From: Amphiscolops sp. MND2022
Lineage: Eukaryota
Assembly (NCBI GenBank): GCA_964187785.1
Contig: OZ076409.1
Coordinates: 72,728,001 to 72,792,000, forward strand
Direction: 5' to 3'
DNA length: 64,000 nucleotides
A model generated the notes under the pieces. It was not told the DNA's origin. It saw only the letters and a program-made list of their open reading frames with translations, and did no database searches. Of this stretch, positions 4,906 to 64,000 are shown piece by piece. Position numbers and translations under genes: made by a program. Every line of letters starts with the position of its first letter. Within the stretch, counting starts at the first letter, position 1.

Positions 4906-6193
4906 GTGGCCGGAAATTTTTTTTTTCATCAAAATCTTTGCCATTGGGGGAGGGGCCCCGGATGGCCAGTAGTACGGGATAGCTTCCTACCAAATCCAGG
5001 CGGAAAAAACGTGATTTTGGAAACTAGCCGTCAGAATTTGCTCAAATTTTGCATACGGCTTCCTATGACAATCCTAAGAACTAATCCCTACTGGCATTTT
5101 GCCCAAAAAACGCAAAAAGTTGGTCAAAATCTTAGTTTTTTGGTCAAAAAATGGCGTTTTTTCGAAAAAATTTTTTTTCAGAGACAATTACTCGTAACTG
5201 GGTCACCCAGCGCAAAAACGCCTAGCTGATTTATTGTTGGGCACTTCATGAGGAGTGCGTATACAAATTTTCGTCCAGATCGGAAAAAAAATGACTAAGT
5301 ATTAGACGGAATTCGGACTCATTTTTTCGCAAATTTTTGAAAACCTAGTCTATCTTTGCCGTTTTTTGCCCAGATTTTTTTCCAGGTCCTCTCCTAAAGG
5401 CCTCCCCTGGCCGGTTTACTTCCCAGAAAAACCAATTGGCCCTAAATACGGAGTTTCAGCGTTCTAGCATTCCCGGGCGAAAAGATGTGGGACTTAGAAA
5501 AAATTCAAAATTTTTCAAAAAATTTTTTTTTCGTTTTCCGGCCCCCCAATGAAGGGGAACGACCCCCCAACGAGGATTTTTGGTGAATTCACGTGGAAAG
5601 GCCTTGTTTTGTGGAGAAAATTGCCGTTTAGAGCGACTTTTTATCTTAACTTGACGTTGACCTCTGTCGTTTTGAATTTGATATTAGTATGTGTTGAGCA
5701 TGTGAAAAGTTGATGATTTCAGTTGTTCTCTCGTGTTCAAGCCATTGAGATACAAGCGGTAGTGATCAAAATGTGATTTATCGCAATTTGGTGGTGCTTT
5801 TGGTGTATTTTGATTCTTTTAAATAAAAAGTTGTTCTTTATATATTTGGTGTATTGATTCAAATTAACAAGAAACAGTTGAGTACATTTCATCTCCCCCC
5901 TTGTGGGGGAGATGAGGATGTACCCGCTAAATGACACGCACAATGGCCCACTTTTACTTTTATGCGACGTTTTCTAGGCTTTTGCGCAAGCCCACTAATA
6001 TTTAGACTGGTTTCCTTTTCTTTTACTCCAAAATTTTCCGTACTAACCACCTTACGCACCACCAGCTCAACGTAACATCCGTAACGTCAACGCCACACAC
6101 TCTCACTAACGCCCACCGTCCGTGGGCATGCCGAGGCATGCCCTTCGACGACGTATGCCAAATAGCGCCACAGGGCGCAAACTTGTCCGCTAG
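4906..6193 (+). repeat. Cassette family A (1288 bp)
   Basis: Near-identical copies start at 31961, 34637, 39171, 44797, 50446 and 59599. Confidence 0.92.
6095..6160 (+). other. Conserved subterminal end box (example): CAACGCCCACCGTCYGT-GGGCATGCC-GA-GGCATGCCC-TTCGACGACGTA
   Basis: Perfect 9-bp inverted repeat at 6124-6143. I count 33 intact copies, typically ~45-60 bp upstream of a cassette end. Confidence 0.9.
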
Positions 6194-7467
6194 GTGGCCG
6201 GGAACTTTTTTTCCTGCATTTTTCTGTCCAATTGGGGGAGGGGCCCCAAGTGGCTGTTATCCGGTTTTACTACCTACCCTAAACACGCTCAAAAAATGAC
6301 GATCTCGAAAACCACCCCTTAGATTTTCCTGAAACTTTGCATACAGGCCTAGAATCAAATCCTAAGAACTATTTCCTACTGGCGTTTTTCCGAATTTTTT
6401 CAAAAAGTTGGTCAAAAATGCAACAAAAGTTGCCAATGGACATAAAAAACGCAACTTTTCGACTTTGAGGGCCCATAACTTTTTTCAGAGTGCCCGGAGC
6501 GATTCGCACAATAACCACAATATTGCTCAGCATTGTCGGAGGAGTGCGTGGACGAAGTTTGGGGTCAATCGAATGAAAATTGATTGAGAAATAAACGCAA
6601 ATGTTCGTGCATTTGTTGCAAACACCAGTCTATCTCTGCCATTTTCGCCAAAAATTTTTCCCAGAGCCTTTATAGGAGGCAACCCCTGCCCAAATTTCTG
6701 CCGAGCAAACCCATTTGGCCCTAAATACGGAGTTTCAGCATTCTAGGATTCCCGGGCGAAAAGTTGTGGGACTTAGAAAAATTTCAAAAAAACGCAAAAA
6801 TTGTAAAAAGTAATTTAGGCGCCCCAAAGTCTCAAAACTTCCACACAACTAGTATTGCAAGTGAATGCATGTGGAAAGCACTTGAATAGACAAGAAATAT
6901 GAGCTATAGAACGACTCTGTAGCTTAATCTGACGTTGACTTATAACATTTTGAGTGTGAGCATCCTATAGGATTTTAATGTCAAAAATGAGATTTTGTAA
7001 GTCATGTCTCATCAAAAACTCATCGGAATACGTTCAATCATCCCCATAGCTGTTCAATCACCGTTGCTTAGTAGAGCAACGCCATTTAATGTCTTTGGAC
7101 CCATTTTGAAAATTTTCCTTACCGTCTTATTCGTCCGATATCACGAAACAATTGAGTACATTCCATCTCCCCCCTTGTGGGGGAGATGAGAATGTACTCG
7201 CCAAAGACCTGAAACAATGGCCCATATTGGTTTTTATTTGACTTTTCTCACAATATTGCACACGGATAGCTGTGTTTGGTAAAAGTTTTCCTTTGCACCA
7301 TGTCTCCAGAAGCAAAACCACTTCTTTAGCTTACTACTTCCACTCAAACATCACTAACGTCAACGCCACATACTCGCATCAACGCCCACCGTCTGTGGGC
7401 ATGCCGAGGCATGCCCTTCGACGACGTATGCCAAATAGCGCCGAAGGGCGCCCCCAATTTCCGCTAG
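6194..7467 (+). repeat. Short cassette, variant C (1274 bp)
   Basis: GTG head, core motif, type I hairpin 7154-7199, end box, CTAG. Confidence 0.88.
7154..7199 (+). other. Type I internal hairpin (example): GAGTACATTCCATCTCCCC-loop-GGGGAGATGAGAATGTACTC
   Basis: One per short or B cassette (25 counted), ~200 bp upstream of the end-box position. Confidence 0.88.
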
Positions 7468-10400
7468 GTGGTTGGGGCGTTATTCCCCACGAAGTTCGCG
7501 GCCGCGGGAGACGGGACCCGCGGACCGCCCATCCAATGCAAAAATATACACTCTAAACAGCACCATTATAAACACGATCTCGAAAATGAACCGTAGGATT
7601 GTCTTGAAATTTTGCATACGGATAGAAGCAAAAATTCTAAGAACTTTTTCCTGCTGGCACTTTTCCGAAAAAAACGTCCTTCATGGGTTTTTTTGGGTTT
7701 TTTTGGTTTTTTCTCATCTTTCTCATCTTTGATTAATCAATCACCGAATCAAATGCCATTTTCAGCATGAAGGAATGCACGTAGCGGCAAAGTGCACTTT
7801 TACAAAAATCATCAACGGTCAACGGTCTTTCGAACGGTCTAAAAAAATTTCCCCCCGGGGGCATGCAAAGTGCCGAAAAGTGCCAAAATATTTTTTTGGT
7901 CTGAATCATTTTGATGAAATTGTTGATTTGAGCAGCAGGAACGGTCCGCACGGTCTCGGACCATAAGGTCAAAAATTGTCAGTGAGTTATGGTGACGTCC
8001 AAAATGACATTGGTTGAGCTGTAGGAGGCCTATGAAAAAATTTGAATTTTTTGAGTCTACAATCCGAGCTGAACTGTTACGTATTATGAACTTTTCAGTA
8101 CTATGTTGCCAAAGACCGAGTACAGATAGGTGCATGGGTCAGCCTTATTGAAATGAACATTGGGCACTGGGCTAACGATTGAGTGCAAAAATTATAGCCT
8201 AGTTGCTGTAGTCGAAGAAAAAAATTCTCAGAAGTGTTACTTTCAATTTGTCATGTTGACTCGGAGTTACAAAAAGATGATTTTCTCGCCAACAACGGTC
8301 CGAACGGTCTTGGACCATAAGATCAAAAATTGTCAGTGTGCTATGGTGACGCCCAAAAACCCATCGGAACAAGCGTAGGATGCTTCTGAAAAAATTTCGA
8401 ATTTTTACCTCGGCCCAAGAGTTATTGTGTTACATCGTAACAACATTTCGTGTATGCATATCTCCTGACAGCGTACAGATAGCATCATGGGTCACCTTTT
8501 TGAAAGTGAACGTGGGCCACTGGTGTACTGCATGGTTATAAAAAATTTAGACTAAGTGCTGCATGGCGTGAATAATATGCCAAGATGTGGTATTTACGAT
8601 ATTTTAGCACGACTCGGACTGACAAAAAGCCTATTTCTGCCCCAGCAACGGTCCAAACGGTCATCAAGTATAAGGTCAAAAAATGTCAGTGTGACATTAT
8701 GGCGCCTAAAAACCTACCAGAATAATCGTAGGAAGCTTCTGAAAAAATTTTGAATTTTTACGTGGGCCCGAGAGTTATGATGTTGCATCGTAGCAACATT
8801 TCGGGTATGCATATCTCCCTACAGAGTACAGATAGCATCATGGGTCACCTTTTCGAAAAAGAACGTGGGCCACTGGTCTATCGATTGGTTGTAAAAAGTT
8901 TTCAATCACTGCTGCACGGCGTGAATAAAATGCCAATATGGGATATTTAGCATTTTTTTGCACGACTCGGACCTACAAAAGTCCCATTTCTGCTCCACCA
9001 ACGGTCCGTACGGTCTTCAACCATAAGGTCAAAAAGTGTCAGTGTGCTATGGTGACGCCCAAAAACCCAACAGTACACTTGTAGAGTGCTTCCGAAAACT
9101 TTTGGAATTTTTAGGTGAGTCCGAGAGTTATAGAGAGTTATGTTGTCACATGGTAACTACATTTCGGGAATGTATATCTCCTGACACAGTACAGATACCA
9201 ACATGGGTCATCTTTTGGAAAGTGAACGTGGGCCACTGGCCTACCGAATGGTGATAAAAAGTTTTCACCAGTTGCTACAGGGAGTGATAAAAGTGCTTAC
9301 ATAGTTTACATAGCATTTTTTCAGGCGACTCGGACTTACAAAAAGCTCATTTGCTAGCGAACAACGGTCTGTACGGTCTCCACTCAATGGGTCGAAAATT
9401 TTTTGTGGGCTATGGTGACGCTCAAAAACCCATCAGTTTACTTGTGGGATGATTCTATAAAAATTTAGTGTTTTCGTGCAGACTATGTTACATATTACAT
9501 TAGGAACCGTGTTTTTTCCTCACCAAAATCATGTTTTTGAGTGCCCAAAAGCAATTTTTAAAGCCCAGTAGCCACCTAAAATGTTCTTTTGCATAACATG
9601 GGATGTGAATAACGTCAAGAAAGTGCTCACTATGGATTTGGAGTTATCTCGAAAAAATCAGCTGCCATTAGACGTTACATTACAGAAAATCGTACCTTAC
9701 ATATCGATTCATGGGTTGAGTCAAAAACAGCTAAAGTTCTTTTTCAGTCAATCAATACTGTTTTTTGTTCACAACCAAGTGTACAGCTGACTTCGAAGCT
9801 ATTTTGACCTTCCACAATGGTTATAATGCGATTTTGAGGGACAAAAGGCTTGTTGACAAACAAAATTCCAAGATGAAATTGCTTTCCAAATCATTTTTTG
9901 AAGTATAGGAACGCCATTTTTTGCCGACAACCATCAAATATCCACTTCTCTTGGCCCAGGGGCTTGTGAAAAATACAACTGAGCCTTGACAAGGCACATG
10001 GACCGTAATTCGAGTAGTCATGTACCACAACATTTGCTAATCGATAGCAACTTTTGTTGAAAATTGATACAACATCACATTTTTGGTGAACTCGAAATGA
10101 CAAAATGGAGCTTTACCAGAAACTATTGGCTTTTAGTACAACTCACTGGCACTGTAAGTTACGAAAATACGGTTTACAGTAGTTTCATGCTACTTTTTCA
10201 GAATCTGAGGTACATAAAAATATCATACTGAATAGACAAATAACTTCAACATCGGAATTTTTCCGGATGTGTCACCACCTTTTTGGTATCAGCGGTCCTA
10301 CCAACACTGCTTTTGGTCTAACACTAAACCCAAGGATCAACCAAGATGTATATCAGACTTGTAAAATCAATGCAAGGTCTTTCGACATGTCAAAAGTACT

Positions 10401-12202
10401 GATAAGATGAGAATCTTCTCAAAAATTCATGTTATGTGTCATATTCCATTCCACGTTTTTTAATCGGTGCTTGTCGGTTATAGTATTAACGCTCAACAAC
10501 GAGCTTACTGACAAGAAACAACTTGTTAACAGTTATTAAAAGTATGTATAATTCCACCATGCTCGGTCTTGGCAGATTTTTCATCCCATTAGTTCTTAAC
10601 GTGTAAATTTTACTTCCCAAAAACCCTATTTTTGTCAGGTCGAAATTCGAATTTTCGTGTTTTGATCAATATTATTGTGTCTGACGTAACCTGTGGCCTC
10701 CAAAATACTCAAAAACAATAGTATGACTGCTATCAAATGCTTCAGTGACATGTGGGGCACGTTAACACGTTTTGGTAAGAAAAATTCCACTTCGAAGTGA
10801 AAATTTGGAAGACACATTGTGTCAATAAAAACTGAATACATGAAAAACGTACCTAACTCCCGTCAATTAGTATTGACGTAGTAACTGTGTTGCGAATTAG
10901 AGGTCTATAGAGTGGTGTATGGGAAAACTGTGGCGCATAAAGCGTTGTTCATAACAAAGTTCTTCCAATAACTACAATTGTGTTTTCAAAAGTTTCACTA
11001 TATTTCACATATTCACAGAATGTGATTGATGCTACCTAGTAATGGAAAACCACTGTCGAATGTTCTTTAGTGGACTCAACAGTCCTGAAAATCACAGACA
11101 TACATCACGATTCATAATTATACACTCGAGGCTACACAGTAATTTATTTCCGCTAGTTGCTGATAACTGAATTTCCTGATAGCCTTCCAAGTTGGCCTTG
11201 TGTCAACCTGGGAAGGCTATCAGTACAAAACACAAAGAACACAGCTTGTTGTTGCCTCTAATTTGCTGTTGTTTTCGTTAAGATTTTATGGTACCGTTTC
11301 TTTATAACATGTGGTTAACATAAGACAATTTCTCTCTGTATGGAACGACATCCATTGATAAGAAAGATTACAGTTTTTTAGTTGAAAAAGACCTTGAAAC
11401 TACTGCGCAATCCATGCAATTTATCCAAAACGTTCATTCATTTCAATAATTTGCGTCCCATTGAGCGTCACAAACCACTATACCTCCTTTAACTGACAGT
11501 ACAAAGACACATCATCCTTTGACCGTCCACAGACCGAAGGCGTGGCGAGGCACGCCTTGCGAAGACCTTTGGCAAAACAGTACTAACGTCCGTTCGTGAC
11601 GCATACGAAAAACTATTTTATTTTCAACAATCGTCATAAAGCATATTTGTTATATCGGCCTTTCGTTACATTTGTGCAATGATACCTTTATCAGTGAAAT
11701 ATTAAGTTATACATAGGTAACTGCAGTAACTTCGTGATAACCAAAGTGATATCAAAATGTTGTTACATAAATATTTCTGACACAGCGGAATTCCGAAGTG
11801 TCATTAGGCACTTTTTCAGTGCTCGTTAGGAAAGCGAGCACTTTTGCTTGGACCAAACATGCTCGTATCAGACTGGTCATGTGAAGGCAAGTAACGGAAT
11901 CGAAACAATGTTCCTCATCAACTTTTTGGTAGCGTCAGAAACACAATGTTTCCTTTTTAATGTCCCCCAGTTGTTTGTTAGCTTCTGTTCATAGAGAATT
12001 GTTTCTGCGCAGACCAAAATATAGCAAGTTATCCAATACGCCTAATAACGGATTTGCCCCACACAGAACTATCACTTAACATTTTTGTATGTTGACATCT
12101 TTTTACCCCGTTGTTCAACAACTCATGCACCTTCATTTCTTCTTCAACAACTAACTCGCCACCTCCTTGTCGTCTCGTGGTTTGTTTAGCCTCCAGCGCT
12201 AG
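7468..12202 (+). repeat. Long cassette family L (4735 bp)
   Basis: Colinear with 17156-21871. Internal ~354-bp repeats, type II hairpin 11178-11221, degenerate end box 11537-11558. Confidence 0.9.
7940..9490 (+). repeat. Internal ~354-bp tandem repeat in L cassette
   Basis: AACGGTCCG.ACGGTCT..ACCATAAGGTCAAAA-like unit starts at ~7940, 8294, 8647, 9000, 9363. Confidence 0.85.
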
Positions 12203-13081
12203 GTGGTCCGGGGCTGTTTTTGCCCCACAAGAACTTTGCGAGGCCTGGGGAGGGTCCCGGGTGGTCCGGGGCTGTTTTTGCCCCACAAGAACTTTGCGAG
12301 GCCTGGGGAGGGTCCCGGAGCCGAGCGCATTATCCAAAATACATCACTAGTCCACCGGGTCCGATTTCGGCGATTTTGGAATCTAACCATACGATTTTAA
12401 TAAAACTTTGCACACATACCTAAAATCAAATTATAAGAACTTTTTTCCTCTGACGTATCATGATTGAAACATTTGTTGAAAAGTTATGTGCAAATGATCG
12501 TGTTTTTTGGCACTTTTTCGCATTTTTCACACAGTAGCTCCACACTTTACGCTATGCATTTGGCCCATTTTTTGCGTGCGCGGCATAAATGATGTCATGT
12601 TTACACATGCCAAAAATTATTTCTCAATTCGCAACAGGAGTGGAGATATGGCGGATAATATTGGCGGAAATTTTAACGAATACGAAAATTTGCACATATT
12701 TGGCCAACATTTGTTTCAAAAATGCGAAAAATTAAAAAGTCCGCGGATTGCGTTGAAACTTGGCACACGTGTAGTAGAACAAATTCTAAGAACTTTTTTC
12801 TTCTGACGTTTTTCCGAAAAATTGCATCTTCAACCTATATTTGCAATATTTCGGGTTTTTTGATTCAAGGTGATTTATCACTCACATATTCAAAGTCCAT
12901 TTTCAGCATGAAGCAACGCAGATACCGGCAATGTGCATATATTGCAAAATCATCAACAGCCAACGGTCTACCGAAAGGTTCAAAAAAATTTTCCCCTCGG
13001 GCCCAATCAAAGTGGCCAAAAGTGGCAAAAGGTTTTTTCCAACTGTATCACCATTACAAAATTGATGATTTGACCAGGAGG

Positions 13082-14280
13082 AACGGTCCGCACGGTCTCG
13101 GACCATAAGGTGAAAAAGTGTCAGTGAGTTATGGTGACGACCAAAATGACATCGGTTGACCTCTAAGAGGCCTCTGGAAAAATTTGATTTTTTTGAGTCA
13201 CGGTCCGAGTTGATCTGTTACGTTCTATGAACAATTCATAATCATGTTACTCATAACCGAGTACAGATAGCACCGTGGGTCATCTTTATCAAAATGAACA
13301 ATGGGCAGCGGTCTAACGATTGAGTGCAAAAAATATACCTTAGTTGCCATAGTGAAAGAAAAAAATTTTCAGAAGTGTTGTTTTCAATTTTTCATGTCGA
13401 CTCGCAGTTACAAAAATGTGATTTTCTCTTCAGCAACGGTCCGAACGGTCTCGACCGATAAGATAAAAATTTGTCAGTGTGACATGGTGGCGCCCAAAAA
13501 CACATCAGAACACTGGTAGGAAGCTTCTGAACGATTTTCGATTTTTCACGTGGGTCCGAGAGTTATAGTGTCACATCGTAACTACATTTCGGGTATGCAT
13601 ATCTCCTCACAGAGTACAGATAGCATCATGGGTCACCTTTTCGAAAAAGAACGTGGGCCACTGGTCTATCGATTGGTTATAAAAAGTTTTCAGTCACTGC
13701 TGCACGGCGTGAATAATATGCCAATATGGGGTATTTAGCATTTTTTTGCACGACTCGGACCTACAAAAGGCCCATTTCTGCTCCACCAACGGTCCGTACG
13801 GTCTTCGACCATAAGGTGAAAAAGTGTCAGTGTGCTATGGTGACGCCCAAAAACCCATCAGTACACTTGTAGAGTGCTTCTGAAAAATTTTGGAATTTTT
13901 AGGTGAGTCCGAGTGTTATAGAGAGTTATGTTGTCACATCATAACTACATTTCGGGTATGTATATCTCCTGACAGAGTACAGATAGGAACATGGGTCATC
14001 TTTTGGAAAGTAAACGTGGCCCACTGGCCTACCGAATGGTGATAAAAAGTTTTCACTAGTTGCTACAGGGAATGATAAAAGTGCTTACATGTGTTACTTA
14101 CCATTTTTTTAGGCGACTCGGACTTACAAAAAGCTTATTTGCTCGCCAACAACGGTCTCTACGGTCTCCGACCATAAGGTCAAAAAAGTTTTGTGAGCTA
14201 TGGTGACGCCCAAGAACCCATCAGTTTACCTGTAGGATGATTCTGAAAAAATTTGTTTTTTTCCAGTTCACTATGTTAGA
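13082..14280 (+). repeat. Internal ~354-bp tandem repeat
   Basis: Unit starts at ~13082, 13435, 13788, 14151. Confidence 0.82.
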
Positions 14281-16114
14281 TATTACATGGCGAACCGTGT
14301 TATTTTTCCAACAAAATTATGTTTTTGAGTGCCCGAAATTAGTTTTTAAAGCACAATAGCCACATAAAATGTTGTTTTGCATAACATGGGATGTGAATAA
14401 CATGAAAAAAGTGCCCACTGTGGGTTTGGGGTCATTTTGAAAAAATCAGCTGCCATTGGACGTTACACATCAGAAAATCATACCTCACATATCAATATAT
14501 GGGTTGAGTGAAAAATAGCTTAAATGATTTTTCAGTCAATCAAGACCCTTTTTTGTTCACAACCACGTGTACAGCTGACGTTGAACGCATATTGATCTTC
14601 CGCAATGGTTACATTACGATTTTGAGTGACAAAAGCCCCGTTGACAAACAAAATTCCAAGATAAAGTTTGTTTCCAAATCATTTTTTGACGTATACGACC
14701 GCCAATTTCTGCCCACACACATCAATTATCCACTTCTCTTAGTCCAGTGGCATGTGAAAAACACAACTAGGCATTGACAATCCACATACACTATAAATCG
14801 AGTAGTCATGGGCAACAATATTTACAAATCAGTAGTGAAATTTGTCTAAAATTGATAACACATCACAATTTTGTTGGAATCAAACTAGCAAAATGGAGGT
14901 TTATCAGCAACTTTTGGCTTTCACAGCAACCCACTGGCCCTGTAATATAGGAAAAGGGTGTTTACCGAACTTTTAAGGTTATATTTCAGAGTCTGAGGTA
15001 GCTAAAAATATCATACTGAAGAGACGCATGACTTCAACTTCAGTATTTTTCCCGATGTGTCAGCACTTTTTTGGTATCGGCGGTCCCACCAATACTGTTT
15101 TTGGTCTGACACTAAACCTTAGGATCAACCAAGGTGGATGCCAGACTTGAAAAATCATTGCAAGGAATTTCGACATGTCAAAAGTAGTGATGACAGGAGA
15201 TATTTCCCAAAAATTCCAGTTATTTGTCAAGTTCCATTGAGCCTTTTTTAATCGGTCCTTGTCGGTTATGGTATTAACGCTCAACAACAACCTCACTGAC
15301 AACAAACAACTTGGTTATAGTTATAAAAAGTATTTATAATACAACCATGCTCGGTCTGGACAGGTTTTTCATCCCATTCGTTGTTAACAAGCAAATTTTT
15401 TTCCCCAAAAACCCAATTTTTGACAGGTCGAAAATTGATTTCCCGTGTTTTGAACAACATTATTGTGTCTGACGTAACCTGTGGCCTCCAAAATACTGAA
15501 AAACAGATATATGACTGGTATCAAATGCTTCATTGACATGTGAGCCACGATAACACGTTTTGCAAAGAAAAATTCAACTTTTAAGTTAAAATTTTGAAGA
15601 CACATTTTCATAATAAAAACAGAATTCATAAAAAGTAACTTATTTCCCGTCAAATACTATTGATATACTATCAGTGTTGCTAATATGAGGTCTATACAGC
15701 GGTGTATGGGAAAAATGTGGCGCATAAAGCATTGTGTAACACAAAACTTTCCAAAGTACTGCGCATTTTTCACTGTACTTTTTGGACTCTATGACAAAAA
15801 TTTGATAGTGTAAACATCAATGAGCAGTTCAATTTAGTACGATTATTCAACTGTGCATATGTTTCAAAGTGCACGATCTTTCTGTTGTTCCAAAATCCTT
15901 TGTTACGGCTGAAAAGATTCATATGTTTTACAACGCAATGTTCATTAAAAGATAAATTAGCAAAGACTGAATCAATTTTACAAAACCTATCAAACTTCTC
16001 AATACGTCTTTCAGCACTTGGATTTTGCAGACTATATAGATCTGATTTGCATTTTTATAAAGACATTATAACTGAATCTTGCATTTTTATAAAGAACTTA
16101 TAAAAAAATTTCAT

Positions 16115-16155
16115 GATAGCCTTCCAAGTTGGCCTTCGGCCAACTTGGAAGGCTA
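16115..16155 (+). other. Type II internal hairpin (example): TAGCCTTCCAAGTTGGCC-TTC-GGCCAACTTGGAAGGCTA
   Basis: Perfect 18-bp inverted repeat here. Variants at 1688, 11178, 20866, 29187, 34286, 37436, 44336, 49985, 57889, 59248, 63509. Confidence 0.88.
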
Positions 16156-17155
16156 GCACTCCAAATACCAAAAAACAGGAGTTCCTTTATTCTCAAAATA
16201 GCTGTGGACAGTTTCATTCAACATTCTTTTCTCACGTTAATTGATAAATTCAGACCATAAACATTTCCATTCGCTATAAGGAGATCATAATTGAGTTCCA
16301 TAAAAACATCTTTCATTGTGTCGCTTAAAAATACCATAAAAACTAACTTGAAACATATGAATCGTATGTGGAACGTACATTCTATTTACCAGTGAGTGTC
16401 TACCCTTATTGGTTCCACCAAATCCTCTACCCCTCCACTAGACAGTACGTTACATCATACGTTGATGTATTTCACAGTGGTGACATAGGGCCAAAAAAAA
16501 ACGAAATGGAGTGTATGCATTGCTAATGTTATTAAGTCAGCCAATTGTGGTAGGAAAGGTTCAATACTACGAAAAATATCTATTCCAACTGACAATGATT
16601 TGGGGCAAACACATGGCACACAAAAATACCTCAATAATTTTCACCAATCAATTTCTTCCACAAAAACTTTTGTGTCCGATGGTGTATAATTTCCTAATTT
16701 GGAATCAGCCAGTTAGTCATTTTCGCATCTCAGCTCGGTCATAACAGAGCGTTCTTTTATGAAATTGTCTCTACCCAAATTCACGTAACGAGGCTGCTAC
16801 GTCCCCTATTTGGAGTGTTATTAGTGTTTATAAGGGATTAATCACTCTAATGAACATATACTTCTAATGTTGAAACTCTTTCACTTTTCTTTGTAAATTG
16901 TTAAAGTAGAACATTGCTGTTATTCAGCAGGAACTCGCTTTGGCTTGCAGAATGATGGAAAATAAATGACAAGTCGCCCTGTAAGGCACCACGTGTCGTG
17001 GGGATGACAAATATGAAATAAGTTGAACACAACAAAGACTACTTTTGTCAACAGAAGGGAAAACGAAAATTTTAATTATGAAAATTTTTATGTTTTTTAA
17101 TACACATTTTCCTCGCATCTCGGCAGTGCAACTGCAACAACCTCGCCTCCACTGG

Positions 17156-44288: not shown

Positions 44289-44307
44289 GCGTTAACGCGT
44301 TATAAAT

Positions 44308-50300: not shown

Positions 50301-51732
50301 GAAGCTGAAACCGCACCTTACCGTTGCTCAAACTTCAACCCGACGCCCCATAGCATACATCAACGCACATCGTCTGTGGGCATGCCGAGGCATGCCCTTC
50401 GACGACGTATGCCAAATACCTTTAACCCGACGCCCGCAGTCCTGGGTGGCCGGAAATTTTTTTTTTCATCAAAATCTTTGCCATTGGGGGAGGGGCCCCG
50501 GATGGCCAGTAGTACGGTATAGCTTCCTACCAAATCCAGATGGAAAAAACGTGATTTTGGAAACTAGCCGTCAGAATTTGCTCAAATTTTGCATACGGCT
50601 TCCTATAACAATCCTAAGAACTAATCCCTACTGGCATTTTGCCCAAAAAACGCAAAAAGTTGGTCAAAATCTTAGTTTTTTGGTCAAAAAATGGCGTTTT
50701 TTCGAAAAAATTTTTTTCAGAGACAATTACTCGTAACTGGTTCACCCAGCGCAAAAACGCCTAGCTGATTTATTGTTGGGCACTTCATGAGGAGTGCGTA
50801 TACAAATTTTCGTCCAGATCGGAAAAAAAATCACTAAGTATTAGCCGGAATTCGGACGCATTTTTTCGCAAATTTTTGAAAACCTAGTCTATCTCTGCCG
50901 TTTTTTGCCCAGATTTTTTTCCAGGTCCTCTCCTAAAGGCCTCCCCTGGCCGGTTTACTTCCCAGAAAAACCATTTGGCCCTAAATACGGAGTTTCAGCG
51001 TTCTAGCATTCCCGGGCGAAAAGATGTGGGACTTAGAAAAAATTCAAAATTTTTCAAAAATTTTTTTTTTCGTTTTCCGGCCCCCCAATGAAGGGGAACG
51101 ACCCCCCAACGAGGATTTTTGGTGAATTCACGTGGAAAGGCCTTGTTTTGTGGAGAAAATTGCCGTTTAGAGCGACTTTTTATCTTAACTTGACGTTGAC
51201 CTCTGTCGTTTTGAATTTGATATTAGTATGTGTTGAGCATGTGAAAAGTTGATGATTTCAGTTGTTCTCTCGTGTTCAAGCCATTGAGATACAAGCGGTA
51301 GTGATCAAAATGTGATTTATCGCAATTTGGTGGTGCTTTTGGTGTATTTTGATTCTTTTAAATAAAAAGTTGTTCTTTATATATTTGGTGTATTGATTCA
51401 AATTAACAAGAAACAGTTGAGTACATTTCATCTCCCCCCTTGTGGGGGAGATGAGGATGTACCCGCTAAATGACACGCACAATGGCCCACTTTTACTTTT
51501 ATGCGACGTTTTCTAGGCTTTTGCGCAAGCCCACTAATATTTAGACTGGTTTCCTTTTCTTTTACTCCAAAATTTTCCGTACTAACCACCTTACGCACCA
51601 CCAGCTCAACGTAACATCTGTAACGTCAACGCCACACACTCTCACTAACGCCCACCGTCCGTGGGCATGCCGAGGCATGCCCTTCGACGACGTATGCCAA
51701 ATAGCGCCACAGGGCGCAAACTTGTCCGCTAG
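47377..51732 (+). repeat. Duplicate of the four-cassette block 41728-46084
   Basis: Offset 5649; identical ORF translations (e.g. 42039/47688, 43464/49113); flanks differ beyond the junctions. Confidence 0.93.
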
Positions 51733-54700
51733 GTGGCCGTGTCTTTTCGACGTGCTTTTGCATTGAGGAGTGGGTAGGGCCCCGCGACGACCTAGAAGAA
51801 TTGGATGCTCACCGAAACGTGCAGAATTCTACGAGATCTCATAGTTTGAGCCATACGATTTTTCTGAAATTTGGCATGTGGCCTGGAATTGGTGAGTAGG
51901 TAAAACGTGTAGAAGGTAATTTTTCCCAAATTCCACTGTGAGAGGAGATATGGGCAAATAACGGACCCAAAAATGGCAAAAATGCACATTTTTCAACTTT
52001 GTCAGCCAATATCTCTTTTCCAGGTGCCCGTAGCGTTCCGCACGTGGACATCAATATTGCTCAGCGCTGTTGGAGGAGTGCGTGGACAAATTTTGGTTTA
52101 AATCGGACTAAAACTTGACGAGAAATTAACGGTTTTTTGGGCGTTTCCGGGGTAAATTTTTTAACGGTCCAGCTTATCTTTGCCATTTTTTCGAAAATGT
52201 ACATGCCTAAAGGCCTCCCCCTGGCCGAATTTACTCCCAGCAAACCCATTTGGCCCTAAATACGGAGTTTCAGCGTTCCAGCATTCCGGGGCGGAAAGTT
52301 GTGGGACTTGGAAAAATTTCAAAATTTTTTCAAAAATTTTTTTTCCCGTTTTCCGGGCCCCCAATGAAGGGGAACGACCCCCCAACCAGTATTTTGAGTG
52401 AATTCATGTGGAAAGCCCATGTTTGGAGGAGAAAAATGCCGTTTAGCACATCTTTTTATCTTAACTTGACATTGACTTATGACGTTTTGAATGTGATGTT
52501 AGGATATATGAAGCATGTTAAAAGTTGAAGTTTTGAGTCTTTATCTCATCGGAAAACCATTGAGATACAAGCAGTTTTGCTAAAAACGATTTTCATTGTA
52601 GGTTAGCAGAGTATTAGTACACTTTGATGTCATTTGAGTATATTTTTCTTCTATATAATAACTGTTTTTATGTATTTATTCCAATTTATCTCATCTTTTA
52701 ACATCAAGCAGTTGAGTACATTTCATCTCCCTTTCGGGGGAGATGAGAATGTACTCGCTAAAAACCTAATGCTATGGCGCCAATGTTTGGATGGGAAGTT
52801 TTCTATGCTTTGAAAAAAGTTATTTTTAATTACTTGATTTTTTAAAACAATAATTAACATGAAGTACATTACTTGCTCCTACTACTACCACCATACATCT
52901 CTAACGTCAACGCCCCCTGCTTGCATCAACGCCCCATCGTCCGTGGGCATGCCGAGGCATGCCCTTCGACGACGTATGCCAAATGCCCAGTGCCACGCAG
53001 TCTTTTCCCGCTAGGTGGCCGTGTCTTTTCGACGTGCTTTTGCATTGAGGAGTGGGTAGGGCCCCGCGACGACCTAGAAGAATTGGATGCTCACCGAAAC
53101 GTGCAGAATTCTACGAGATCTCATAGTTTGAGCCATACGATTTTGCTGAAATTTGGCATGTGGCCTGGAATTGGTGAGTAGGTAAAACGTGTAGGAGGTG
53201 ATTTTTCCCAAATTCCACTGTGAGACGAGATATGGGCAAATAACGGTCCCAAAAATGGCAAAAATGCACTTTTTTCAACTTTGTCAGCCCATATCTCGTT
53301 CCCAGGTGCCCGGAGCGGGACGCGTTAAGCTGATTATAAACTCTAGGGTGTTGAGGCTGTACGGGGAAGTCAGGCCCGTTCCGATCGGACTTGTAGTCTT
53401 GGAGAAATAACGGTATTTTTGGGGAACCTTTTCTAACGGTCCAGCTTATCTTTGCCATTTTTTCGAAAATGTACTCGCCTAAAGGCCTCCCCCTGGCCGA
53501 ATTTACTCCCAGCAAAACCATTTGGCCCTAAATACGGAGTTTCAGCGTTCCAGCATTCCCGGGCGAAAAGTTGTGGGACTTGGAAAAATTCAAAAATTTT
53601 CAAAAAAATTTTTTTTTCGTTTTCCGGGTCCCCAATGAAGGGGAAACGACCCCCCAACCAGTATTTTGAGTGAATTCATGTGGAAAGCCCTTGTTTTGAC
53701 GAGAAAAATACCGTTTAGAACATCTTTTTATCTTGACTCAACGTTGACTTATGACGTTTTGAATGTGATGTAAGGATGTAGGAGGCATGTGATAAGTTGA
53801 TGTTTTGAGTCTTTATCTCATATGAAAGCGGTTGAGATGCAAGCTGTCCTGCTCAAAACGTCTTTCGTTGTAATTTTCCAGTGCACCAATACCCTTTGGT
53901 GTCATATAAACATACTTTTTGTCGATATATTAACATTTTTAATGTATTTATTCCAATTTTTATTATCTTATAACTCAAAACAGTTGAGTACATTTCATCT
54001 CCCTTTCGGGGGAGATGAGAATGTACTCGCTAAAGACCTAGCGCCATGACCAAAAGTTTGAAACCCACGTTTTTTATCTTCTTACAGACTTGTTTTTGTA
54101 TTTTTTCGGAATTTTTTAAAAATTAATATACTTGAAATACATTACTTGACTTTACTACTACAACCCACCTCCAACGACAACGCCCCCTGCTTGCATCAAC
54201 GCCCCATCGTCCGTGGGCATGCCGAGGCATGCCCTTCGACGACGTATGCCAAATGCCCAGTGCCACGCAGTCTTTCCCCGCTAGGTGGCCGTGTCTTTTC
54301 GACGTGCTTTTGCATTGAGGAGTGGGTAGGGCCCCGCGACGACCTAGAAGAATTGGATGCTCACCGAAACGTGCAGAATTCTACGAGATCTCATAGTTTG
54401 AGCCATACGATTTTGCTGAAATTTGGCATGTGGCCTGGAATTGGTGAGTAGGTAAAACGTGTAGGAGGTGATTTTTCCCAAATTCCACTGTGAGACGAGA
54501 TATGGGCAAATAACGGTCCCAAAAATGGCAAAAATGCACTTTTTTCAACTTTGTCAGCCCATATCTCGTTCCCAGGTGCCCGGAGCGGGACGCGTTAAGC
54601 TGATTATAAACTCTAGGGTGTTGAGGCTGTACGGGGAAGTCAGGCCCGTTCCGATCGGACTTGTAGTCTTGGAGAAATAACGGTATTTTTGGGGAACCTT

Positions 54701-56821
54701 TTCTAACGGTCCAGCTTATCTTTGCCATTTTTTCGAAAATGTACTCGCCTAAAGGCCTCCCCCTGGCCGAATTTACTCCCAGCAAAACCATTTGGCCCTA
54801 AATACGGAGTTTCAGCGTTCCAGCATTCCCGGGCGAAAAGTTGTGGGACTTGGAAAAATTCAAAAATTTTCAAAAAAATTTTTTTTTCGTTTTCCGGGTC
54901 CCCAATGAAGGGGAAACGACCCCCCAACCAGTATTTTGAGTGAATTCATGTGGAAAGCCCTTGTTTTGACGAGAAAAATACCGTTTAGAACATCTTTTTA
55001 TCTTGACTCAACGTTGACTTATGACGTTTTGAATGTGATGTAAGGATGTAGGAGGCATGTGATAAGTTGATGTTTTGAGTCTTTATCTCATATGAAAGCG
55101 GTTGAGATGCAAGCTGTCCTGCTCAAAACGTCTTTCGTTGTAATTTTCCAGTGCACCAATACCCTTTGGTGTCATATAAACATACTTTTTGTCGATATAT
55201 TAACATTTTTAATGTATTTATTCCAATTTTTATTATCTTATAACTCAAAACAGTTGAGTACATTTCATCTCCCTTTCGGGGGAGATGAGAATGTACTCGC
55301 TAAAGACCTAGCGCCATGACCAAAAGTTTGAAACCCACGTTTTTTATCTTCTTACAGACTTGTTTTTGTATTTTTTCGGAATTTTTTAAAAATTAATATA
55401 CTTGAAATACATTACTTGACTTTACTACTACAACCCACCTCCAACGACAACGCCCCCCTGCTTGCATCAACGCCCACCGTCCGTGGGCATGCCGAGGCAT
55501 GCCCTTCGACGACGTATGCCAAATGCCCAGTGCCACGCAGTCATTATCGCTAGGTGGCCGTGTCTTTTCGACGTGCTTTTGCATTGAGGAGTGGGTAGGG
55601 CCCCGCGACGACCTAGAAGAATTGGATGCTCACCGAAACGTGCAGAATTCTACGAGATCTCATAGTTTGAGCCATACGATTTTGCTGAAATTTGGCATGT
55701 GGCCTGGAATTGGTGAGTAGGTAAAACGTGTAGGAGGTGATTTTTCCCAAATTCCACTGTGAGACGAGATATGGGCAAATAACGGACCCAAAAATGGCAA
55801 AAATGCACTTTTTTCAACTTTGTCAGCCCATATCTCGTTCCCAGGTGCCCGGAGCGGGACGCGTTAAGCTGATTATAAACTCTCGGGTGTTGAGGCTGTA
55901 CGGGGAAGTCAGGCTCGTTCCGATCGGACTTGTAGTCTTGGAGAAATAACGGTATTTTTGGGGAACCTTTTCTAACGGTCCAGCTTATCTTTGCCATTTT
56001 TTCGAAAATGTACTCGCCTAAAGGCCTCCCCCTGGCCGAATTTACTCCCAGCAAAACCATTTGGCCCTAAATACGGAGTTTCAGCGTTCCAGCATTCCCG
56101 GGCGAAAAGTTGTGGGACTTGGAAAATTTTGAAAAATTTTCAAAAATTTTTTTTTCGTTTTCCGGGCCCCCAATGAAGGGGAAACGACCCCCCAACCAGT
56201 ATTTTGAGTGAATTCATGTGGAAAGCCCTTGTTTTGACGAGAAAAATACCGTTTAAAACATCTTTTTATTCTGACTCAACGTTGACTTATGACGTTTTGA
56301 ATGTGATGTAAGGATGTAGGAGGCATGTGATAAGTTGATGTTTTGAGTCTTTATCTCATATGAAAGCGGTTGAGATGCAAGCTGTCCTGCTCAAAACGTC
56401 TTTCGTTGTAATTTTCCAGTGCACCAATACCCTTTGGTGTCATATAAACATACTTTTTGTCGATATATTAACAATTTTAATGTATTTATTCCAATTTTTA
56501 TTATCTTATAACTCAAAACAGTTGAGTACATTTCATCTCCCTTTCGGGGGAGATGAGAATGTACTCGCTAAAGACCTAGCGCCATGACCAAAAGTTTGAA
56601 ACCCACGTTTTTTATCTTCTTACAGACTTGTTTTTGTATTTTTTTGGAATTTTTTAAAAATTAATATACTTGAAATACATTACTTGACTTTACTACTACA
56701 ACCCACCTCCAACGACAACGCCCCCCTGCTTGCATCAACGCCCACCGTCCGTGGGCATGCCGAGGCATGCCCTTCGACGACGTATGCCAAATGCCCAGTG
56801 CCACGCAGTCATTATCGCTAG
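51733..56821 (+). repeat. Four tandem family-F short cassettes (51733-53014, 53015-54284, 54285-55553, 55554-56821)
   Basis: Shared head GTGGCCGTGTCTTTTCGACGTGC. The last three are near-identical (1270, 1269, 1268 bp); the first has a different body. Confidence 0.92.
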
Positions 56822-58211
56822 GTGGTCGGGTATTTTTTTTTACTCGTAGATGGCGTTTGCGAGGCTTTGGGGAGGGCCCCGTGCCGAGCCTGTACCGAAA
56901 TTTACCACATACCAGAAGTGTCCGATTTAATCGAGATCTCAAAAACTAACCGTTAGAATTCTCTGAAATTTTGCATGTGGCCCCTAATCAATGAGTAATG
57001 AAAAAGTGTAGGAGTGACGGTTGCTGAAAAACTTGTCTTTGTTGCACTTTTTGCGCAATTTTTGTCGCATTGTTGCGTTTTTTATGTCATTTTCGACTTT
57101 TCAAGCAAAAAACTCATAGATGCTTTGTTCCTAGCGTATCAAGTGTGGAGCACGAAAAGTTGCAGCATCTTCCATTACGTATGCTGAGAAAATTTGGTTG
57201 CCCTCGGATTACCCCCCACAGAGATAGAGGGGTGCATCCGGGTATTTTTGACTCCTAAATTTGGGAAATTGCTAATTTTCGTAATAAAGCTGTAGATTTA
57301 GCGCGTGCACACCCTGCTGAAGATTTGTTAGGCATTTTGAGATAGATCCGATGACATGCGTTGAGTTCACCCCCATCACCTCCTTGACCGGAAATGAACG
57401 TTTTTGTGCACTTTCAGACCGGAAGTCTCCATTTTCACCGGTAAGGAGGCATTGTACGAGCAACTAGCAGGATATCAAAAGTGAAGTATAGCCTGGGGTC
57501 AACCTAATGACCACGTGTTGTCCAGTCATGGGTTTCGCTATGACCGGAAATGGGCTTAAAACCCCCTTTTGGTAGTATTTTTATCAATTTTCCTTGTGCT
57601 TGGTCCACATTCAAGTTGCGTAAGTCAGTTGAACCAGTGAGAGCATAAAATATATATTCACTGCGTAGTCGTAACTGACACTGCCAGATACCGGAAGTAA
57701 CCCCCTGTGACCGGAAGAGGTCAATTTTGACCGGAAATGGTCCAAAAAGTAGCGTAAATGCAGTTTTCAATGCTTTTCAAGGTCAAGTTATTAGTATTTT
57801 TCAATTTGAAAGCTATTTTCCACGCAAAAAGCTAACATCGTTGCATGTTTTGCTGAAAATCGGAAAAGTGATCACCATTATCACCCCCGATAGCCTTTCA
57901 AGTTGACCTTTGGTCAATCTTGAAGGCTATCTGTCCTGAAAACGAAAAATAGTGGAATTTTGTTTCCTCCTTTCTCTTGATATTTTTCCTTCAAGTCAAT
58001 TTGTCAAAAGAAAGACATTTGTTCAACTGAGTGATCTGAAACCTGTCCAGAGGTGTCACCCGGACGAATACCATTTCAAGCTGAAGTACACAAATCAGGG
58101 TAGTATTAGACATCACACACTCCTACCAACTACCACCGTCTGTGGGCATGCCGAGGCATGCCCTTCGACGACGTATGCCAAATAGCGCTACAGGGCGCCC
58201 ACATTTGCTAG
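56822..58211 (+). repeat. Divergent H-like cassette (1390 bp)
   Basis: Type II hairpin 57889-57931; ACCGGAAGTAACCCCC block shared with families B and H. Confidence 0.83.
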
Positions 58212-59598
58212 GTGGTTGGGGCGGTCCCCAGAACGCACAAGGAGGCGCGGGGAGGGTCCTGCGCCGACGTAGAATAATTTCATAAAATACTAGTATCCTA
58301 CATGGGTGATTTAGAGGCGATTTTGGAATCTAACCGTACGATTTGGATAATTTTTTGCATGCGGCCATAACTCGAAATTCTAAGAACTTTTTCTCACTGT
58401 CATTTTCCCCGCAAATTGTTTTTTGTTGACTTATGGCCGAAAAACCGGAAATAACGTCCTTTTTAAACGTTATATCCGAAGTGTTGTCATAACTTTTTTC
58501 CAGGGCATGCTAGCGTTCCCGTTCACTTTTACACTTAGTTGCAGCATCTCAAAATACAACTGGTGGAAAATTTTGGTTGCATTCGGATCACCCCCCACCG
58601 AGATAGAAGGGTTCCCCCCTCCAGTTTTACCCCCCAAAATTGAGAAAATACCAATTTTGAGCATGAAGCCGTGGATTTAGCGAATCCTTACCCCCCTATT
58701 GTTTTGTCGGACGTATTAGGGTCAATCTGGCGACATGTGTGGTTTTCACCCCCAACCCCCCCTGGGACCGGAAATGACATTTTTTGTGTTTTTTGACAAA
58801 AATTAGCCTTTTTGATTAGTTGGCAGTCGTTTTTGGGCCTCCTAGCAGGATATCGAAGTTGAAATACAACTTGATCACAACCCAGTGACAACATGTTGGC
58901 CAGTTGCAGGTACCATCATGACCGGAAGTGGGGTCAAACCCCCTTTTTGTGACCGCTTTTTGACCTTGTGCACCAAAATGCCAACAACTTGAGGCCTAAT
59001 GACGCATTCAAATCTGTACAAAGATAGAACGTTAGACAACGGAAGTCCCGGAAGCTCTTTAGCATATACCGGAAGTCACCCCCCATGACCGGAAGTTGTC
59101 CAATGTGACCGGAAATGGTCCAAAAATTCATGTAAAATTAATTTTTTCACTTATTGAATACCACTTCGTTGAACATTTTCAATCCCAAAACTAGCGTACT
59201 AGCTGGTGGCGTTGAATTTATGGAAATTGAGGAGCTTTATCACCCCCGATAGCCTTCGAAGTTGACCTTGCGTCAACTTTGGAGGCTATCGATTCTGAAA
59301 ATGAACAACAAAGTATTTTGTTGCTCTCGTTTTTTTCCGTTTTTTTCCTCAAATATTGTTGAGACATACACATGGCCGTTAGTTAAAATCAATATTTTAG
59401 CCCATGTTATAGCGTGAGTAGCGAAGCGTTACACAGGCTGGTGTGGTTTTGAACTATAATTATTTTAAAATAAAAAAAGACCATCTTAGTCAACTCCACA
59501 CATTCATACCAACGCCCACCGTCTGTGGGCATGCCGAGGCATGCCCTTCGACGACGTATGACGAATCCACTCCAACGACACCCGCAGTCCTCAGCTAG
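58212..59598 (+). repeat. Cassette family H (1387 bp)
   Basis: Homologous to 33249-34636. Confidence 0.9.
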
Positions 59599-60885
59599 GT
59601 GGCCGGAAATTTTTTTTTCATCAAAATCTTTGCCATTGGGGGAGGGGCCCCGGATGGCCAGTAGTACGGGATAGCTTCCTACCAAATCCAGATGGAAAAA
59701 ACGTGATTTCGGAAACTAGCCGTCAGAATTTGCTCAAATTTTGCATACGGCTTCCTATAACAATCCTAAGAACTAATCCCTACTGGCATTTTGCCCAAAA
59801 AACGCAAAAAGTTGGTCAAAATCTTAGTTTTTTGGTCAAAAAATGGCGTTTTTTCGAAAAAAAAATTTTTCAGAGACAATTACTCGTAACTGGTTCACCC
59901 AGCGCAAAAACGCCTAGCTGATTTATTGTCGGGCACTTCATCAGGAGTACGTATACAAATTTTCGTCCAAATCGGATAAAAATTGATTGAGAAATAACTG
60001 AAAATTTGAGGCATTTTTTTGGAAATTTTTGAAATCCCAGTCTATCTCTGCCGTTTTTTGCCCAGATTTTTTTCCAGACACTTTCCTAAAGACCTCCCCT
60101 GGCCGGTTTACCTCCCAGCAAAACCATTTGGCCCTAAATACGGAGTTTCAGCGTTCTAGCATTCCCGGGCGAAAAGATGTAGGACTTAGAAAAAATTCAA
60201 AAATTTTCAAAATTTTTTTTTTGCGTTTCCTGGCCCCCCAATGAAGGGGAACGACCCCCCAACTAGGATTTTTGGTGAATCCATGTGAAAAGGCCTTGTT
60301 TAGTGGAGCAAATTGCCGTTCAGAGCGACTTTTTATCTTAACTTGACGTTGACCTCTGTCGTTTTGAATTTGATATCAGTATGTGTTGAGCATGTGAAAA
60401 GTTCACGATTTCAATTGTTCTCCCGTGTTCAAGCCATTGAGATACAAGCGGTAGTGATCAAAATGTGATTTATCGCAATTTGGTGGTGTTTTTGGTGTAT
60501 TTTGATTCTTTTAAATAAAAAGTTGTTCTTTCTATATTTGGTGTATTGATTCAAATTAACAAGAAACAGTTGAGTACATTTCATCTCCCCCCTTGTGGGG
60601 GAGATGAGGATGTACCCGCTAAATGACACGCACAATGGCCCAATTTTATTTTTATGCGACGTTTTCTAGGCTTTTGCGCAAGCCCACTAAAATTTAGACT
60701 GGTTTCCTTTTCTTTTACTCCAAAATTTTCCGTACTAACCACCTTACGCACCACCAGCTCAACGTAATATCTGTAACGTCAACGCCACATACTCGCATCA
60801 ACGCCCACCGTCCGTGGGCATGCCGAGGCATGCCCTTCGACGACGTATGCCAAATAGCGCCACAGGGCGCAAACTTGTCCGCTAG
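59599..60885 (+). repeat. Cassette family A with divergent central patch (1287 bp)
   Basis: A-like ends; ~59930-60340 carries variants typical of D-like and other short units. Confidence 0.88.
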
Positions 60886-63969: not shown

Positions 63970-64000
63970 GTGCCGGGATTTCTATTCGATAAAGTATGTG

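Follow-up and report, generated by a model that had tools for sequence, protein, structure and literature searches.

The stretch analysed here is a window of 64,000 nt, C1:72,728,001-72,792,000, inside the 1.07-Gb genome of the eukaryote Amphiscolops sp. MND2022; positions given without a contig name refer to this window. All of it (1..64000, + strand) is a one-orientation array of Helitron-like units joined head-to-tail, as identified by a search for the joint motif CT[AG]G·GTG[GC], where the dot marks the junction between one unit and the next. A sequence-only reading of the same DNA had described seven near-identical cassettes, family A, each followed by a different neighbour. We find that the units in the window are transposon copies and not gene cassettes. 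Family A is likely to consist of non-autonomous Helitron-like units, new copies of which would be inserted singly, in one orientation and at CTRG·GTG joints, by the Rep-helicase-GIY-YIG protein of the same lineage.

Units and joints of the array

The joint motif occurs 36 times on the + strand of the window and once on the - strand, and there are 35 complete units, spanning 2713-63969. Each unit starts with GTG(G/C) and ends with CT(A/G)G, and the units tile the arrays completely. At the joint CTAG·GTGG at 6190..6197 (+), for example, a 3' terminus of the CTRR type abuts the 5' GTG of the next unit. The majority of the units measure 1,264-1,292 nt, the remaining ones are 1.07, 1.39, 1.78, 2.0, 2.2 and 2.8 kb long, and three reach 4.7-4.95 kb. 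The window opens with the 3' portion of a 4.7-kb unit (1-2712), which is 98.8% identical to the unit at 7468-12202. The array extends 100 kb beyond the window on each side, and in the resulting 264 kb (C1:72,628,001-72,892,000) there are 152 joints on the + strand and 3 on the - strand.

A 401-nt probe spanning one joint gave 2,074 first-look candidates in the genome, 40 of which were scored. Our pooled unit set consists of 654 kb from 14 loci on 7 contigs, with 304 units; 318 joints are on the array strand and 4 on the opposite strand. On C1, sampling places the array zone between 70,454,838 and about 76.49 Mb (~6 Mb of the 104-Mb contig). All sampled points of the zone are in + orientation and no array was found at 70.0-70.45 or 76.503-77.6 Mb; the zone is not a single uninterrupted array. 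An array in + orientation also reaches the very end of contig C2 (C2:103,880,000-103,906,487), where either the array lies at a chromosome end or the assembly stops inside it.

The seven copies of family A are whole units of 1,287-1,288 nt with a mutual divergence of 0-6.2%, all on the + strand. Copy 1 (4906..6193, 1,288 nt, non-autonomous) lies between a 2.19-kb unit upstream and the unit at 6194-7467 downstream. Copies 2 (31961..33248) and 3 (34637..35923) show 0.0% divergence from each other. Copy 4 (39171..40458) opens a block of four units, 39171-44796, which is repeated at 44797-50445 as a 5.6-kb segmental duplication opened by copy 5 (44797..46084); the tail upstream of copy 5 ends in CTGG. 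Copy 6 (50446..51732) is 0.1% divergent from copy 5, and copy 7 (59599..60885) is the most divergent (4.7-6.2%). A diverged relative, 75% identical, is found at 25694..26970 (+).

The 32-nt tail on which the sequence-only reading was built occurs in all seven copies without a single mismatch (chance expectation 0), at the places it had reported and always on the + strand. It was also right that every copy is followed by GTG and a distinct head. The neighbours were counted as seven; they fall into six families at 90% single linkage, those at 40459 and 46085 being one family. When 300-nt flanks are aligned, mean pairwise identity is about 0.9-1.0 within the family A unit and 0.2-0.5 beyond CTAG·GTG on both sides; the upstream neighbours therefore differ too. 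The remark that A is never next to A is correct as a count (0/7 in the window, 0/9 in the 264 kb) and carries no weight, as shuffling gives P = 0.23 and 0.60. As to the shared 7-mer, the units have more than this in common, namely the head architecture and a tail block; the approximately 45 nt on either side of a joint are nevertheless their most family-specific part, and it is at the joint that identity between copies breaks.

The head is formed by GTG plus a hairpin with the loop GG(G/T)(G/T)AGGG. In copy 1 this 5'-end (left terminal sequence, LTS) hairpin is at 4940..4966 (+) with the conserved loop GGGGAGGGG; the arms vary by family while complementarity is kept, e.g. GGATTC/GAATCC, GGCGC/GCGCC and GCCATT/GATGGC. 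The loop motif GG[GT][GT]AGGG[TCG]CC is located about 40 nt inside 31 units of the window on the + strand and never on the - strand, and it is present in 132 of 152 distinct heads. Using a register-tolerant count, arm complementarity averages 4.68 nt, compared with 3.28 +/- 0.10 when the partners are swapped.

The tail contains a conserved 20-nt palindrome, GGGCATGCC-GA-GGCATGCCC, at 6124..6143 (+) in copy 1 and found in 266/304 units. It is followed by TTCGACGACGTAT, and the conserved run stops about 45 nt short of the terminus; the final ~45 nt and the first ~40 nt of the units are family-specific. A short GC hairpin at 6165..6178 (+) lies 11 nt upstream of the terminal CTAG, a position as at the canonical Helitron 3' end. 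This 3' hairpin is clear in family A, and over 155 distinct tails the folding energy is only slightly lower than in shuffled sequences (-4.3 vs -3.5 kcal/mol). Of 276 distinct joints, 249 have CTAG as the last four letters of the unit and 27 have CTGG. The 5' end is GTG(G/C) in 276/276, partly by construction of the search pattern. CTRR is given as the 3' end of canonical Helitrons in excerpts of PMC11417382 and PMC4067079.

Two further observations concern the unit ends. A weak long-range complementarity (70-75% over 20-30 nt) connects a site around position 140 of the unit with the tail just past the palindrome (5046-5075 / 6134-6163 and 53151-53170 / 54235-54254); it occurs in two families that are only 63% identical to each other and is absent from a third. 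Two mutated joints, TTAG·GTG and CTCG·GTG, are present in the pool, at the C7 locus around 26,420 and the C10 locus around 3,300, so joints decay like other sequence. The motif search would read units with a mutated joint as double-length.

In the 264 kb the 151 units form 43 families at 90% identity, and 97 distinct ordered family pairs are found over 150 joints. Eleven families of 1.26-1.29 kb are homologous over the full length with 56-85% identity. Two families of 1.39 kb have unrelated bodies (~42%) and the same head architecture and tail block as the others. An internal block of ~75 nt, columns 551-625 of the family alignment, is about 88% conserved across the 1.27-1.29-kb families; its core lies at 5436..5460 (+) and has 23 matches in the window. 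Regional domains are visible in the array, with families of 2 kb and 4.7 kb to the left and 1.28-kb families to the right.

Single units of many families are the dispersal module. Unit pairs of at least 97% identity form 413 collinear blocks, and 399 of these contain a single unit, 13 two units and one three units; some of the pairs are on different chromosomes. For copies with different neighbours, downstream identity stops exactly after GTG in 45/110 pairs, and upstream identity stops after G in 30/180 and after CTAG in 33/180. Longer identity runs past the joint reflect related families. The stop positions therefore place the break within G·GTG.

Polarised addition of the integron or CRISPR kind, which the sequence-only reading had offered for testing, does not describe these arrays. 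In Mantel tests of divergence against distance its family A, which is family D in our clustering labels, gives r = 0.45 (p = 0.08), and divergence does not follow array position. For the families labelled A, C and E in the clustering we obtain r = -0.05 (p = 0.82), r = -0.06 (p = 0.61) and r = 0.11 (p = 0.21), and for the one labelled B r = 0.30 (p = 0.016). There is no array polarity of either kind.

Coding units and the Rep-helicase-GIY-YIG protein

A genome search with the Pfam family Helitron_like_N returned three groups of matches, one full-length at ~200 bits, one at ~60-76 bits and one at ~43 bits. The ~43-bit group covers profile positions 108-190 only and is found in intron-less open reading frames (ORFs) of ~2,370 aa, located within array zones and in array orientation. 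One coding unit, C1:73,779,246-73,793,793 (14,548 nt), has array-type joints on both sides, the head hairpin and a CTAG end. Its ORF of 2,372 aa contains Helitron_like_N at 1033-1130 (E 1e-10; 42 bits, cut-off 28.9), PIF1 at 1773-1910 (3e-11; 44 bits, cut-off 25.9) and GIY-YIG at 2258-2329 (2e-5). The Rep match covers the last 83 of the 191 positions of Helitron_like_N. The protein shows an HUH motif (HYH) and a YxxxY motif, both of which are retained by a relative with 27% identity. Pif1 structures match the helicase part with E = 1e-10.

We have seen eight coding units, of 12.3-14.5 kb and in at least four subfamilies (74-97% identical), all in arrays and in array orientation. Their neighbours are of one family in only 1/21 pairs upstream and 0/28 pairs downstream. 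The non-autonomous copies match their coding partner in the GTG start, the head hairpin, the CTAG end and approximately positions 110-772, which are common with its 5' region. The conserved ~75-nt internal block, which has no Rfam match, lies within this common portion and recurs in the 5' region of the autonomous element. The last ~100 nt of the coding units belong to a different tail class from most short units; some short units have it.

In public data 21 relatives of the protein were found, down to 25% identity. A Pfam scan of the protein and six relatives shows GIY-YIG in 4/7 and an OTU domain in 1/7, while DUF6570 and AP endonuclease are absent from all of these at E <= 1. In the genome DUF6570 has 44 hits, none of them in array-embedded ORFs; according to excerpts of PMC11417382, the HELIANO authors propose it as a marker of Helitron2/Helentron elements (HLE2). 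Three metagenome contigs (5-8.5 kb) carry distant relatives, and the joint-plus-loop motif was not seen in them; they are probably too short to reach the ends.

The structure of Helraiser, a canonical Helitron (HLE1), matches the helicase only, and phmmer gave no match between the Rep and the Helraiser Rep. The genome also holds canonical Helitron-type Rep genes (~200 bits) and DUF6570-bearing HLE2-type genes. In BLASTP comparisons of the Rep core, neither the HLE1 of this genome (E = 0.09) nor its HLE2 (E = 0.085) gives a significant match, and the HLE1 and HLE2 Reps match each other at E = 0.006. By this measure the Rep appears about equally remote from both. Taken together, the Helraiser, DUF6570 and BLASTP results fit a separate lineage without proving it. 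The literature searched describes a fusion of Rep-helicase with GIY-YIG in a single case, a GIY-YIG domain termed 'captured' in one Sphagnum HLE2 family (excerpts of PMC11417382).

Two more ORFs flank the gene (L018:2157-2720 and L019:2227-3192; C1:73.78-73.79 Mb). The one of 188 aa matches DUF459 weakly (E = 8e-6, below the cut-off) and contains the motifs GDS, GGND and DGVH, which are typical of SGNH hydrolases. For the one of 322 aa neither Pfam nor NCBIfam gives a match; NCBIfam is likewise silent on the 188-aa ORF and on the first 1,000 residues of the large one.

In the window itself there are only eight ORFs of at least 120 aa. Six of these were scanned with Pfam and match no family; the remaining two, from sister units, closely copy one of the six. 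Rfam at gathering threshold gives no match over the whole window, and a permissive Rfam scan of 4906-7467 gives only two sub-threshold chance matches. No tRNAs are found in the window, and a phage collection contained no match to a unit.

The three long units at 7468..21871 (+; 4,735, 4,953 and 4,716 nt) have ends as in the other units and contain internal tandem repeats of 353/363 nt, at 8258-9436, 13423-14255 and 17946-19114 (2.3-3.3 copies, 78-79% matches). Satellite-like repeats are also present in non-autonomous Helentrons of insects and oysters. At 12202-12318 an exact 58-nt tandem duplication covers a unit head including the joint-proximal hairpin and loop, and this unit has two loop motifs, at 12247 and 12305.

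Host sites and proposed growth of the arrays

At clean array edges the left host flank ends in CTAG or CTGG in 3/3 cases, and on the right the host resumes with GTA or GTG in 3/3; a flank ending in CTRG is expected by chance about once in 128 per flank. The first array on C1, C1:70,454,838-70,687,496 (232,659 nt, ~233 kb), starts after the host sequence '...aatCTAG', and its first unit is a copy of family A. The left flank belongs to a host repeat for which nine uninterrupted paralogous sites were found, and 7/9 of them read CTAG·GTATCAACATCC, the others having CGAG and CAAG. At the right edge a unit ends in CTAG and the host repeat carries on exactly where it left off, with GTATCAACATCCTCGAAAAC...; 40 nt later an unrelated insertion intervenes, beyond which the repeat resumes from its position 41. 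A host-repeat fragment at C1 70.69 Mb was considered as an array edge and rejected, as it is this right-flank continuation past another insertion. The same host repeat is found in tandem on C5:2.993-3.003 Mb with ~1.6-1.9-kb spacing, each copy with an unoccupied CTAG·GTATC.

The array on C6 is complete (C6:71,534,589-71,591,079; 56,491 nt) and has 32 joint motifs, all on one strand. Its flanks, '...gctatCTGG' and 'GTGATTTTAAC...', are the two halves of one host repeat of ~205 nt, which is very abundant and whose paralogs read CTTG·GTG(A/C/T)TTTTAAC uninterrupted. The third left edge is CTGG· and the third right edge ·GTAAAT. The two fully bounded arrays (233 kb and 56.5 kb) thus each occupy one host site, with no target duplication and no loss. 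Judged by the paralogs, the host site before insertion already resembled the element joint, CTRG·GTG, reading CTAG·GT or CT(T/G)G·GTG.

We propose the following mechanism. An HUH Rep would nick one short sequence, CTRG·GT, at the unit start, at the unit end and at the target. The unit would be copied out, joint to joint, as a single-stranded circle, and the circle would then integrate at another joint, whichever it may be, or at a host site that resembles one. With every insertion a joint would be re-formed on both sides, beside hairpins that may bind Rep, so that the arrays could act as self-extending landing pads, and local tandem duplication would superimpose runs of one family. Joint-to-joint copy-out and integration at joints would explain why single units are the module, why orientation is fixed, why families are mixed, why the neighbours of autonomous copies vary and why an array grows from one site. 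Nicking of one sequence in three places by Rep is the simplest reading of a host site that resembled the joint before insertion. The claim of enzyme-defined joining is borne out in so far as the joints are precise and strand-specific and homology does not explain them; the likeliest enzyme is a rolling-circle Rep rather than a system of the integron or CRISPR type.

Several observations weigh against insertion at joints. The 233-kb array was sampled at about 13 points between its edges (all of them array, all +) and not read through, the right edges on C5 and at C1 76.49 Mb are degenerate, and the left edge at C1 70.697 Mb is an assembly gap. The occupied C6 site has CTGG where paralogs of ~80-85% identity have CTTG, and the insertion point is not placeable within the shared CTAGGT. 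On a fixed alignment of 17 heads RNAalifold recovered only three invariant inner pairs and no fixed-column covariation, so the arm complementarity rests on the register-tolerant count. A strict search for X-Y versus X-Z-Y arrangements with two matching units on each side gave no case, i.e. no insertion was caught directly, and 157 looser 'filled/empty' pairs are ambiguous between insertion and deletion. Short contigs from a public run (0.11 of sampled words) cover 11/30 bins and bridge no joint. Finally, the mixing is non-random: same-family adjacencies number 41 against 11.7 +/- 2.9 expected, a count exceeded in none of 5,000 shuffles, and the mutual information of neighbour families is above all 5,000 shuffles. 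When runs are collapsed, the adjacency test has just 13 valid shuffles. The excess and the mutual information together imply that duplication or unequal exchange also shapes the arrays.

This last point leads to satellite-like dynamics, in which a Helitron first inserted and was then multiplied by rolling-circle read-through into multimers, unequal crossing-over and segmental duplication, with recombination mixing the families. The same-family excess, the four-unit 5.6-kb duplication in the window and the regional domains speak for it, and single-family tandem Helitron arrays are known (excerpts of PMC9248874, citing Pritham and Feschotte 2007). However, 399 of the 413 near-identical blocks consist of one unit each, between unrelated neighbours and in part on different chromosomes, and identity breaks at the joint, whereas recombination would predict breaks in the conserved blocks; the neighbours of autonomous copies differ at every locus. 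As the full account of the arrays we regard these dynamics as unlikely, while the sequences indicate that local duplication clearly also acts on them. An assembly artefact, with near-identical units joined in the wrong order, could arise where 1.3-kb units up to 100% identical mislead the assembler, and the zone has one assembly gap. It is nonetheless very improbable, given that the same architecture recurs at 14 loci on 7 contigs, that two arrays have host flanks which, left and right, fit a single host site, and that wrong joins in identical bodies alter the order but cannot create precise heterologous joints.

The remaining alternatives concern the enzyme. The elements could be as we propose, with the C-terminal GIY-YIG picking and nicking the target in the manner of a homing nuclease and Rep processing the donor only. 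GIY-YIG is fused to Rep-helicase in this lineage, in 4/7 of the proteins scanned and down to 25% identity, and Helentrons hold another nuclease, AP endonuclease, at the equivalent place (excerpts of PMC11417382). But the target is equal to the joint of the element itself, and the simplest reader of that joint is the enzyme that cuts it, and IS91 transposases achieve tetranucleotide specificity without a second nuclease (excerpts of PMC13181058), which makes a targeting role of GIY-YIG doubtful. An integron-like or other site-specific recombinase shuffling cassettes at the core CTAGGTG would suit the precise joints at a short common core and the discrete modules. We give it almost no credence: Pfam found no recombinase in the 6/8 window ORFs scanned, the only enzyme in the one long unit scanned is Rep-helicase-GIY-YIG, and the arrays have no polarity and their modules no genes.

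Insertion of single units at joints by the lineage's own Rep protein thus remains our likely reading for family A. More tentatively, the elements may be a third eukaryotic Helitron-like lineage, with Rep-helicase and GIY-YIG and no DUF6570, which would use one nick site, CTRG·GT, at start, end and target and hence form arrays of singly re-insertable units; this is a possibility that we do not yet favour. If true, integron cassette arrays and the tetranucleotide targeting of IS91 would both have a counterpart in eukaryotes, driven by an HUH enzyme, and compartments of hundreds of kb to Mb would be built from a single host site.

Helitrons are usually described with loosely defined A·T or T·T insertion sites, and for the origin of tandem Helitron arrays and Helitron-derived satellites read-through has, to our knowledge, been the sole explanation. 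In this genome a single host site that matches the element joint is the starting point of arrays as long as 233 kb. If Rep uses the joint both as nick site and as target, Helitron end recognition and integration would become testable with short oligonucleotides. A transposon could then itself build a satellite-like genome compartment, such as the ~6-Mb zone on one chromosome, and in the protein there would be a natural integrase for single-stranded DNA, specific for strand and sequence, with possible use as a tool.

Comparison with known systems

The elements are Helitron-like in the broad sense, because of the Rep-helicase protein, the lack of target duplication and the non-autonomous derivatives. 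With canonical Helitrons (HLE1, e.g. the bat Helraiser) they have in common a Rep (HUH, two Tyr) and a Pif1-type helicase in one ORF, a 3' CTRR that in some families is preceded, about 11 nt upstream, by a short hairpin, the lack of terminal inverted repeats and of target duplication, and non-autonomous derivatives with common ends. Helraiser circles have a precise end-to-end joint and are transposition-competent, according to excerpts of PMC4778049. Unlike in HLE1, the 5' end is GTG instead of TC, and the target is CTRG·GTR instead of A·T, as seen at the host sites CTAG·GTAT and CT(T/G)G·GTGA and the edges CTGG· and ·GTAA. The conserved 5' hairpin and the GIY-YIG domain are further differences.

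The likeness to Helitron2/Helentron elements (HLE2), with their HINE/DINE-1 derivatives, consists of a large Rep-helicase protein with an extra nuclease domain, palindromes near the ends and internal tandem repeats in some non-autonomous copies; an OTU protease domain, known from some Helentrons, occurs in one relative. However, the nuclease here is GIY-YIG and not AP endonuclease, the DUF6570 marker is absent, and the target is neither T·T nor T/C. In 3/3 units no inverted repeat was found between the first 30 and the last 80 nt, the only inverted-repeat-like signal seen in these three being a weak 12-nt match between about position 140 and the tail.

The IS91 family (IS91, IS801, IS1294) also combines an HUH rolling-circle transposase with insertion next to a tetranucleotide and no duplication. 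According to excerpts of PMC13181058, these transposases insert beside CTTG or GTTC, which adjoins the origin end and is required for transposition; the elements of this family have a pair of subterminal palindromes at their origin end and a single one at the terminus, where the tetranucleotide is target-like. IS91 elements differ in being bacterial, ~1.5-2 kb long and without helicase or GIY-YIG fusion, compared with a Rep-helicase fusion in a eukaryote here, and the excerpts of PMC13181058 contain no description of Mb-scale mixed arrays. The likeness would be one of mechanism only. Rolling-circle replication proteins nick at their origin in a comparable way.

Excerpts of PMC13085455 place the Paramecium Helitrons in a third, divergent clade; their insertion, specific for sequence and strand, is proposed to go into telomere repeats, and this sets their orientation. 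They differ in having the telomeric C4A2 repeat as target, and GIY-YIG has no occurrence in PMC13085455. Integron cassette arrays are a functional analogy, with discrete modules at a short core site and circles as the presumed currency. Integrons, however, use a tyrosine recombinase, have attC/attI sites and polarised entry, and carry gene cargo; the ORFs scanned and the Mantel tests gave no sign of these here.

The closest arrays are the single-family tandem Helitron arrays of Myotis (Helibat) and of the Drosophila pseudoobscura Y, which, as described in excerpts, are likewise head-to-tail with the 3' end joined to the 5' end. Those arrays consist of one family and are ascribed to read-through, whereas here 43 families are interleaved in 264 kb. 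Mixed-family, joint-targeted arrays have no description in the full-text literature searched, Repbase, Dfam and subscription journals lying outside its scope. Nor does that literature report arrays of as many as 43 families within one host site, a target resembling the joint or, the Sphagnum case aside, a Rep-helicase-GIY-YIG protein.

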